From an uncultured bacterium (GTDB lineage: Bacteria > Desulfobacterota_D > UBA1144), in assembly GCA_913050245.1 (NCBI GenBank), contig CAJWZJ010000005.1, positions 30,931 to 94,930 of the forward strand: a stretch of DNA of 64,000 nucleotides, written 5' to 3'. The position numbers were made by a program, and so were the translations under genes. Shown in pieces: positions 9,228-9,324 of the stretch. The notes beneath the pieces were generated by a model. It made no database searches and was not told the DNA's origin. It worked only from the letters and a program-made list of their open reading frames with translations. How positions within the stretch are numbered: the first letter of the stretch is position 1; every line of letters begins with the position of its first letter.

Positions 9228-9324
9228 ATAACGGTTTTTAAGTTGAGTGCCACCTGTAAAGGCTTTAGTGTCGGTGACCAGTCGACTAAGGTGAGAGAGC
9301 TTAGGTACAGAAGGCACTCGTTAT
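9228..9324. ncRNA. Candidate structured RNA element of unknown family
   Basis: GC-rich island with nested inverted repeats GAGTGCC/GGCACTC, CTGTA/TACAG, GTCG/CGAC, CTAAG/CTTAG and outer ATAAC/GTTAT. I recognise no known RNA family consensus. Confidence 0.5.

Follow-up and report, generated by a model that had tools for sequence, protein, structure and literature searches.

Introduction

Stable stem-loops between the cistrons of bacterial operons include the REP element between malE and malF of E. coli and the intercistronic hairpins that follow pufA in the puf operon of Rhodobacter capsulatus, both of which are stabiliser hairpins. The locus described here resembles these systems in that a stable stem-loop lies between a highly expressed upstream cistron and a weakly expressed downstream cistron, and in that the hairpin marks the end of the abundant upstream RNA, with some read-through. 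It differs from them in that the element is present in a single copy at one locus, has a conserved 47-nt interior with an apical mini-hairpin, and confers only a putative protection from exonucleases. Phage T7 RNase III signals such as R1.1 are likewise intercistronic hairpins; once cut, they leave a 3′ hairpin by which the upstream mRNA is stabilised. Our element shares with R1.1 a length of about 60-75 nt and an arrangement of lower stem, asymmetric internal loop and upper stem; with an upper stem of just 4 bp, however, its double-stranded length is short for RNase III.

A further point of comparison comes from AT-rich genomes. In 2009, Meyer and colleagues reportedly sought structured-RNA candidates among the GC-rich intergenic regions of 'Candidatus Pelagibacter ubique'. 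Like those candidates, the element described here is a conserved GC-rich island in an AT-rich, streamlined genome and falls outside Rfam; unlike them, it is placed by transcript data at the 3′ end of an mRNA and not in a 5′ leader.

Results

A 75-nt hairpin lies between a porin-like gene and an FMN_bind-like gene

We analysed a stretch of 64,000 nt (the window) from a 0.8 Mb genome with 30% GC. A first-pass annotation, made from the letters of the window, had proposed a GC-rich structured RNA at 9228-9324. The structured element exists, but its limits are different: a covariance model (R1; 76.3 bits at G000:C5:40175-40249, the genomic coordinates of the window copy) and the predicted fold place it at 9245-9319 on the minus strand, a length of 75 nt (Table 1). 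GC content over the element is 0.38-0.44, against about 0.2-0.3 in the flanks. GC-rich stretches of 70 nt are common within genes of this genome, which has 552 of them, so the island is noteworthy solely for being intergenic.

A spacer of 132 nt (9222-9353) separates the porin-like gene from the FMN-binding protein gene; both genes lie on the minus strand, as does the hairpin. The hairpin starts 34 nt past the porin stop codon and ends 23 nt ahead of the ATG of the FMN-binding gene at 9221, not about 10 nt ahead of that gene as first estimated. Neither a U-tract nor a Shine-Dalgarno sequence is present in the intervening 9222-9244. Note that the porin reading frame called mechanically from 10724 (456 aa) overcalls the gene: the porins of relatives have 414 aa, and the porin RNA contigs extend no further up than 10588-10637. 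The porin and both small downstream proteins are without a Pfam match. The flavinylation motif of the FMN_bind-like protein (window 8778-8789, alignment A3) reads VSNSTIS in genus 1 (hereafter g1), with VANSTIS in its genome G004; other genera have VSG(S/A)TIS, so the G-to-N change is specific to g1.

Table 1 Features of the porin/FMN-binding gene junction, in window coordinates
Feature	Position	Strand	Basis or remark
Whole hairpin	9245..9319	minus	Covariance model R1 match; minimum-free-energy fold
Closing stem, 5′ arm GAGUGCCUUCUGUA	9306..9319	minus	Partner is 9245-9258
Pyrimidine-rich 5′ interior strand CCUAAGCUCUCUCACCUUA	9287..9305	minus	Unpaired in the sense-strand fold
Apical mini-hairpin: GUCG, 9-nt loop ACUGGUCAC, CGAC	9270..9286	minus	Stem 100% paired in the alignment
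A-rich 3′ interior strand ACUAAAGCCUU	9259..9269	minus	Counterpart in all genera
Closing stem, 3′ arm UACAGGUGGCACUC	9245..9258	minus	RNA contig ends here; overlaps a weak -35-like GTGGCA
Conserved box AAAUACGCAUAAC in the interval between porin stop codon and hairpin	9321..9333	minus	Kept in g1 and g4
Post-hairpin spacer AACUUAAAAACCGUUAUAUUAGA	9222..9244	minus	Contains -10-like TATATT (9225-9230)
Porin-like gene, 418 aa	9354..10610	minus	ATG at 10610; Shine-Dalgarno AAGGAGG; stop codon TAG at 9354-9356
Exported FMN_bind-like protein gene, 170 aa, signal peptide	8709..9221	minus	Protein alignment; RNA depth 0-5

The closing and apical stems covary

In the minimum-free-energy fold, the arms form a 13-bp closing stem, GAGUGCC-u-UCUGUA / UACAGG-u-GGCACUC, with one U.U, and the 47-nt sense-strand interior between them contains a 4-bp apical stem, GUCG/CGAC. 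Taken alone, the window copy is just modestly more stable than its shuffles, with a fold z-score of -1.6 and 17 of 200 shuffles equally stable. It is the weakest copy of the family, and the z-scores of its relatives range from -3.0 to -4.8. Across an alignment of genera g1 and g4, 98.6% of the cells in the closing and apical stems are paired, and 6 of the 16 pairs are altered on both sides. The covariation score of this alignment is 0.436, compared with 0.240 for shuffles (0 of 500 reach 0.436) and at most 0.13 for slid controls. For the closing stem alone (alignment A5), there are 12 aligned pairs with 98% paired cells and 5 double-sided changes; the apical stem shows a U-A to C-G change plus G.U variants. 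We restricted these counts to g1 and g4 because a MAFFT alignment of all 24 hairpins scrambled the stems; genus g2 was inspected by hand. Within the two covarying helices there are 8 G.U cells and 0 A.C cells, a pattern that fits the sense strand.

Fold and covariation thus bear out the 13-bp minus-strand stem of the first-pass annotation, and the GUCG/CGAC pairing that it had listed in the interior is both conserved and covarying. The supposedly mutually exclusive pairings CUAAG/CUUAG and CUUAGU/ACUAAAG did not hold up: congeners have CCCAG ... CCUCG, and we conclude that these pairings are incidental because they are lost there.

All of the pairings would be incidental if the FMN-binding protein had an N-terminal extension translated from GTG 9317, a case that the first-pass annotation had itself raised. 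The frame from 9317 to the ATG is open in this genome, but it is not conserved, being open for just 7 codons before the ATG in congeners; moreover, substitutions in the region lack codon periodicity, and the signal peptide starts at the ATG. With the frame closed in congeners, we rule out a coding extension from GTG 9317 and give almost no credence to this explanation of the pairings.

The interior is conserved beyond its pairing

BLAST matches the element in three congeners at about 1e-11, and both BLAST and covariance model R1 indicate one copy per genome. The model finds one sense-strand copy in each g1 genome and in one g4 genome, and no convincing second copy in these genomes; a dispersed repeat, whether REP or MITE, is ruled out by this copy number. 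Both genes occur in 13 family genomes, which represent six genera (g1 to g6), and in each of these a long, GC-rich hairpin with a closing stem of 12-17 bp occupies the porin/FMN-binding junction. The porin and FMN-binding genes are either both present or both absent (13 of 19 genomes), and wherever they are present the hairpin follows the porin gene and is followed in turn by the genes for 170 aa and 165 aa. Marine metagenome contigs supply more variants of the hairpin. Given that the family members TOBG-NAT430, SP78, SAT211, NAT510 and NAT53 are named with the genomes covered by a study of marine Dadabacteria (PMC8115339), we take the family to be pelagic Dadabacteria.

The sequences of the closing stem are unrelated among distant genera, and the pairing is always retained. 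At 4-fold sites, the porin genes of this genome and of three congeners (G001-3) are saturated, with 0.50-0.53 identity, yet 37 of 41 interior positions (about 90%) are identical among congeners, a rate of change as slow as that of second codon positions. Moreover, a stretch of 22 nt around the apical hairpin is identical between g2 and g6, despite their differing closing stems. We conclude that the interior is under sequence-level selection. Its 5′ strand is CU-rich in every genus, and the AGCUCUCUCACC portion of this strand is invariant within g1. The A-rich strand has AAA(N)CC or AAAGG at the equivalent position in all genera, and the apical loop is nYUGGUCAm in g1 and g4 and CGGGGACAA in g2 and g6. 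The interior architecture varies by genus, with two loop types, an extra hairpin in g4 and a reduced interior in g3 and g5. Outside the stem, g1 and g4 share a box with the sequence ACGCAUA(A/U), whose distance from the stem varies from 1 to 12 nt.

Several specific functions for these sequences were considered and rejected. Anti-Shine-Dalgarno pairing, or pairing between the 5′ and 3′ UTRs, does not fit, since the porin gene has AGGAGG in every genus, the CU-rich strand lacks CCUCC and there is no covariation between them. Complements of the CU-rich strand or the apical loop, as candidate targets in trans, are scattered intragenic matches only. An attC-like site based on ATAAC ... GTTAT is rejected because the flanks misfit RYYYAAC/GTTRRRY and synteny is fixed.

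Porin RNA contigs stop at the hairpin

The locus is found in many marine metatranscriptomes. In three runs, assembled porin contigs reach the hairpin from the porin side: the X24 contig runs from 10604 to 9242 at a depth of 26.3 and includes the hairpin, the X25 contig runs from 10588 to 9263 at a depth of 20.8 and stops in the 3′ part of the hairpin, and the X26 contig runs from 9769 to 9248 at a depth of 10.8, with Illumina adapter sequence abutting 9248. All are contigs assembled without strand information, and their depth is an average, so that their ends are approximate and their strand is not readable. The downstream genes have a depth of just 0-5 in the same three runs, and RNA depth across the assembled contigs falls about 4-9 fold past the hairpin. 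Four shallower metatranscriptome runs contain the porin gene only, and an RNA contig from a congener similar to G003 halts immediately ahead of the 3′ arm. As a control, DNA-metagenome contigs from four runs span 8721-10900 unbroken at flat depth; hence the drop is seen in RNA and not in DNA. The first-pass annotation had suggested, as one of its options, an mRNA-processing or stability element that sets the stoichiometry of porin and downstream products, and this is the option that the transcript data favour. With respect to the T7 R1.1 signal, the contig ends are split between the stem base (two runs) and the 3′ interior strand (two others), and speak decisively for neither side. In a g2 species, RNA contigs continue past the hairpin and into the FMN-binding gene, with comparable depths (16 vs 21), and we conclude that any block by the hairpin is at best partial there.

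Like intrinsic (Rho-independent) terminators, the element is a GC-rich hairpin just past a stop codon at which transcripts end. Simple versions occur at the same junction elsewhere: in g3 and g5, a run of U5-U6 comes after the hairpin, and in other phyla (Nitrospinota, Nitrospirota, Myxococcota and others) the junction from porin to FMN_bind has simple GC-rich hairpins, several of them followed by a U-run. Unlike intrinsic terminators, it lacks a U-tract in g1, g2, g4 and g6, has an interior of 47 nt in place of a loop of 3-8 nt, and is read through in g2. The window hairpin is not a canonical intrinsic terminator because no U-tract follows its stem (tail AACUUAAAAACC), and a scan of 8100-10800 returned 0 terminator-like sites. 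Genome-wide, 13 strong intergenic hairpins were found in G000, only 2-3 of which have a U-tract after them; the lineage seems to use U-tract-less hairpins at gene ends.

Riboswitch or attenuator was another option of the first-pass annotation. A riboswitch for the FMN-binding gene is not supported, since the RNA contigs place the hairpin at the porin 3′ end and not in a 5′ leader, and no alternative pairing is conserved. The downstream gene also lacks a Shine-Dalgarno sequence and has promoter-like -35 and -10 boxes of its own. In a broader form of the idea, the element would be a regulated attenuator: a small molecule or protein would bind the interior (CU-rich strand, GGNCA loop and A-rich strand), stabilise or open the closing stem and so tune read-through from the porin gene into the flavinylation genes, making the element a terminator-embedded riboswitch or an RNA-protein switch. 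Such a mechanism would account for the strong purifying selection on the interior (identity of about 90%, compared with about 50% for 4-fold sites), for the 22 nt that g2 and g6 share despite unrelated closing stems, for read-through that varies among species, and for the confinement of the element to one gene module. However, no known aptamer matches at E<=10, an anti-terminator pairing is not conserved, the variation of the interior from genus to genus is unlike that of a ligand pocket, and the downstream gene appears to have a separate, leaderless promoter. We consider regulated attenuation unlikely. We likewise doubt that the interior is a sensor within the porin mRNA end-hairpin, through which a ligand or RNA-binding protein would set transcription or decay into the extracytoplasmic flavinylation genes; if it were, it would be a regulatory RNA class limited to pelagic Dadabacteria and missing from Rfam.

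The element does not resemble known small RNAs

A search of Rfam 15, a check that the first-pass annotation had proposed, returned nothing at the element, either in this copy (whole window at the gathering threshold; 9100-9450 at E<=10) or at the loci of six relatives (E<=5). That it is not SRP RNA had been anticipated correctly: RF00169 has no match at the site, and the SRP RNA of this genome lies on another contig (G000:C4:24058-24131, 43.9 bits). This SRP RNA (locus L001) is 74 nt long, scores just above the Rfam cut-off and lies 2 nt from a long-arm tRNA. As for 6S RNA, which is about 150-200 nt long with a large central bubble between long helices, the 75-nt element with its 4-bp apical stem lacks this architecture. 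RF00013 has no match at the element or anywhere in the genus, but the genus-wide search is uninformative because the model is insensitive, having found 6S RNA in only 5 of 14 control genomes.

The final option of the first-pass annotation, an independent small RNA, would take the form of a 3′-UTR-derived sRNA cut from the porin mRNA, an antisense RNA from the plus strand or a miniature 6S-like RNA. All three forms have to contend with RNA contigs that link the element to the porin coding sequence. An antisense product would benefit from the behaviour of the interior, which on the antisense strand folds better in 22 of 24 sequences (mean -9.9 vs -5.4 kcal/mol), forming a longer rod by means of extra G.U and A-U pairs between the GA-rich and U-rich strands; but the G.U pairs of the covarying helices are specific to the sense strand, and no plus-strand gene or convincing promoter leads into the site. 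While the unpaired CU-rich strand could serve as the seed of an sRNA, no complementary target stands out in the genome. A 6S-like role would be in keeping with the lack of a 6S RNA match in the genus, in a search of low sensitivity, but not with the size and 4-bp apical stem of the element. We regard an independent small RNA as very unlikely.

The FMN-binding gene probably has its own promoter

The FMN-binding gene lacks a Shine-Dalgarno sequence, and a -10-like hexamer is found 6 nt before its ATG in g1, g2 and g4. In g2, the upstream region reads TTGACA, 16 nt, TAGATA, 6 nt, ATG, with a spacer of fixed length and variable sequence; in g1, TATAAT or TATATT is followed by 6 nt and the ATG (for the window copy, the second ATG, at 9218). 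The window copy has the promoter-like arrangement GTGGCA-17-TATATT at 9253-9225. Note that a promoter scan returned 22 promoter-like sites against 14.7 expected, and that such boxes are weak evidence in DNA of 30% GC. From these sequence features, the FMN-binding gene probably has its own promoter and a leaderless mRNA without the hairpin; an mRNA from this promoter would exclude the hairpin because the predicted start is the A of the ATG. Reading the TGGCAC of the 3′ arm as a sigma-54 promoter is rejected, as congeners lose the GG (TAGCAC) and there is no -12 GC.

The position of the putative promoter suggests another role for the interior, in which the stem is an RNA end-hairpin and the interior acts as DNA, providing an activator site and an UP-like A-tract for the leaderless promoter of the FMN-binding operon; the minimal spacers of a streamlined genome would explain why these sites are packed within a terminator. 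In favour of this role, the centre of GTCG-N9-CGAC or CTGC-N9-GCAG falls 57-65 or 70-72 bp before the ATG in 18 of 18 sequences measured, and with the ATG as the putative transcription start, the A-rich strand occupies about -40 to -55 and the -35 box abuts or overlaps the 3′ arm. Conservation of sequence, beyond pairing alone, is also consistent with a DNA site. However, the 'loop' of the repeat is conserved like its arms and is asymmetric, and the outer apical pair varies as G.U (4 of 9 sequences), a variation more in line with RNA pairing than with a symmetric protein site. Furthermore, the regulator is only hypothetical, the strand asymmetry of pyrimidines and purines is left unexplained, and the promoter boxes carry the caveat given above. 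A DNA-level role for the interior is therefore one to which we assign a low probability.

At the other end of the porin transcription unit, a palindrome, ATGGATAT-N3-5-ATATCCAT (window 10631-10652, minus strand), sits between the porin -10 box and the Shine-Dalgarno sequence. It is conserved in sequence at the same position across all six genera (loci L045-L056) and in the mRNA would fold into a hairpin of 8 bp, some 3 nt away from the predicted 5′ end. It may serve to stabilise that end, alongside or in place of a role as a DNA operator.

Discussion

The structure at this junction is real, conserved and covarying, and it lies on the RNA contigs of the porin gene, which stop there. On balance, we favour the explanation that the hairpin ends or protects the 3′ end of the porin mRNA, as terminator or stabiliser, and thereby keeps downstream expression low. 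We infer the following sequence of events. RNA polymerase would start at a promoter near 10661-10688, transcribe the porin gene and run 34 nt beyond the stop codon into the 75-nt hairpin. The abundant porin transcript would end at the base of the hairpin, its end being made either by hairpin-dependent termination or by 3′-to-5′ exonucleases that halt at the stem; by either route, the product would be an abundant and discrete porin mRNA, about 1.4 kb long. The genes for the FMN-binding protein and the membrane protein would be expressed at a far lower level. Limited read-through would reach them, and they probably also have a separate promoter just past the hairpin, which would yield a leaderless mRNA.

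The presence of a conserved palindrome at the 5′ end as well is what would be expected of a stabilised, abundant mRNA, and so argues for a hairpin that ends or protects the transcript. Against this explanation, an interior of 47 nt is atypical of a terminator or a stabiliser, and its identity of about 90% is not accounted for by the plain model. The absent U-tract of the window copy, the read-through in g2, the better fold of the interior on the antisense strand and the averaged depth of the unstranded RNA contigs count against it as well.

A porin of about 440-460 aa is also encoded directly 5′ of an FMN_bind-like gene in Nitrospinota, Nitrospirota, Myxococcota, Binatia and other phyla (loci L057-L081). 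This arrangement suggests that the pair forms an outer-membrane and periplasmic redox module without a Pfam name. Within G000 but outside the window, three more intergenic hairpins, at C1:12323-12374, C2:79210-79269 and C8:21884-21933, have stems of 12-15 bp and loops of 22-36 nt, and are candidates for additional structured RNAs.

Next to nothing is known about the control of gene expression in pelagic Dadabacteria, which are abundant and streamlined but uncultured bacteria of the ocean. The locus provides a transcript-supported example, in which a very abundant porin mRNA has conserved structures at both ends and a lineage-specific structured hairpin without a U-tract separates it from weakly expressed neighbours. 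It also indicates that a GC-rich intergenic island, the kind of feature used for riboswitch hunts in AT-rich genomes, can be the end structure of an mRNA. The conserved interior of the hairpin is a candidate protein-, ligand- or DNA-level signal in these bacteria.
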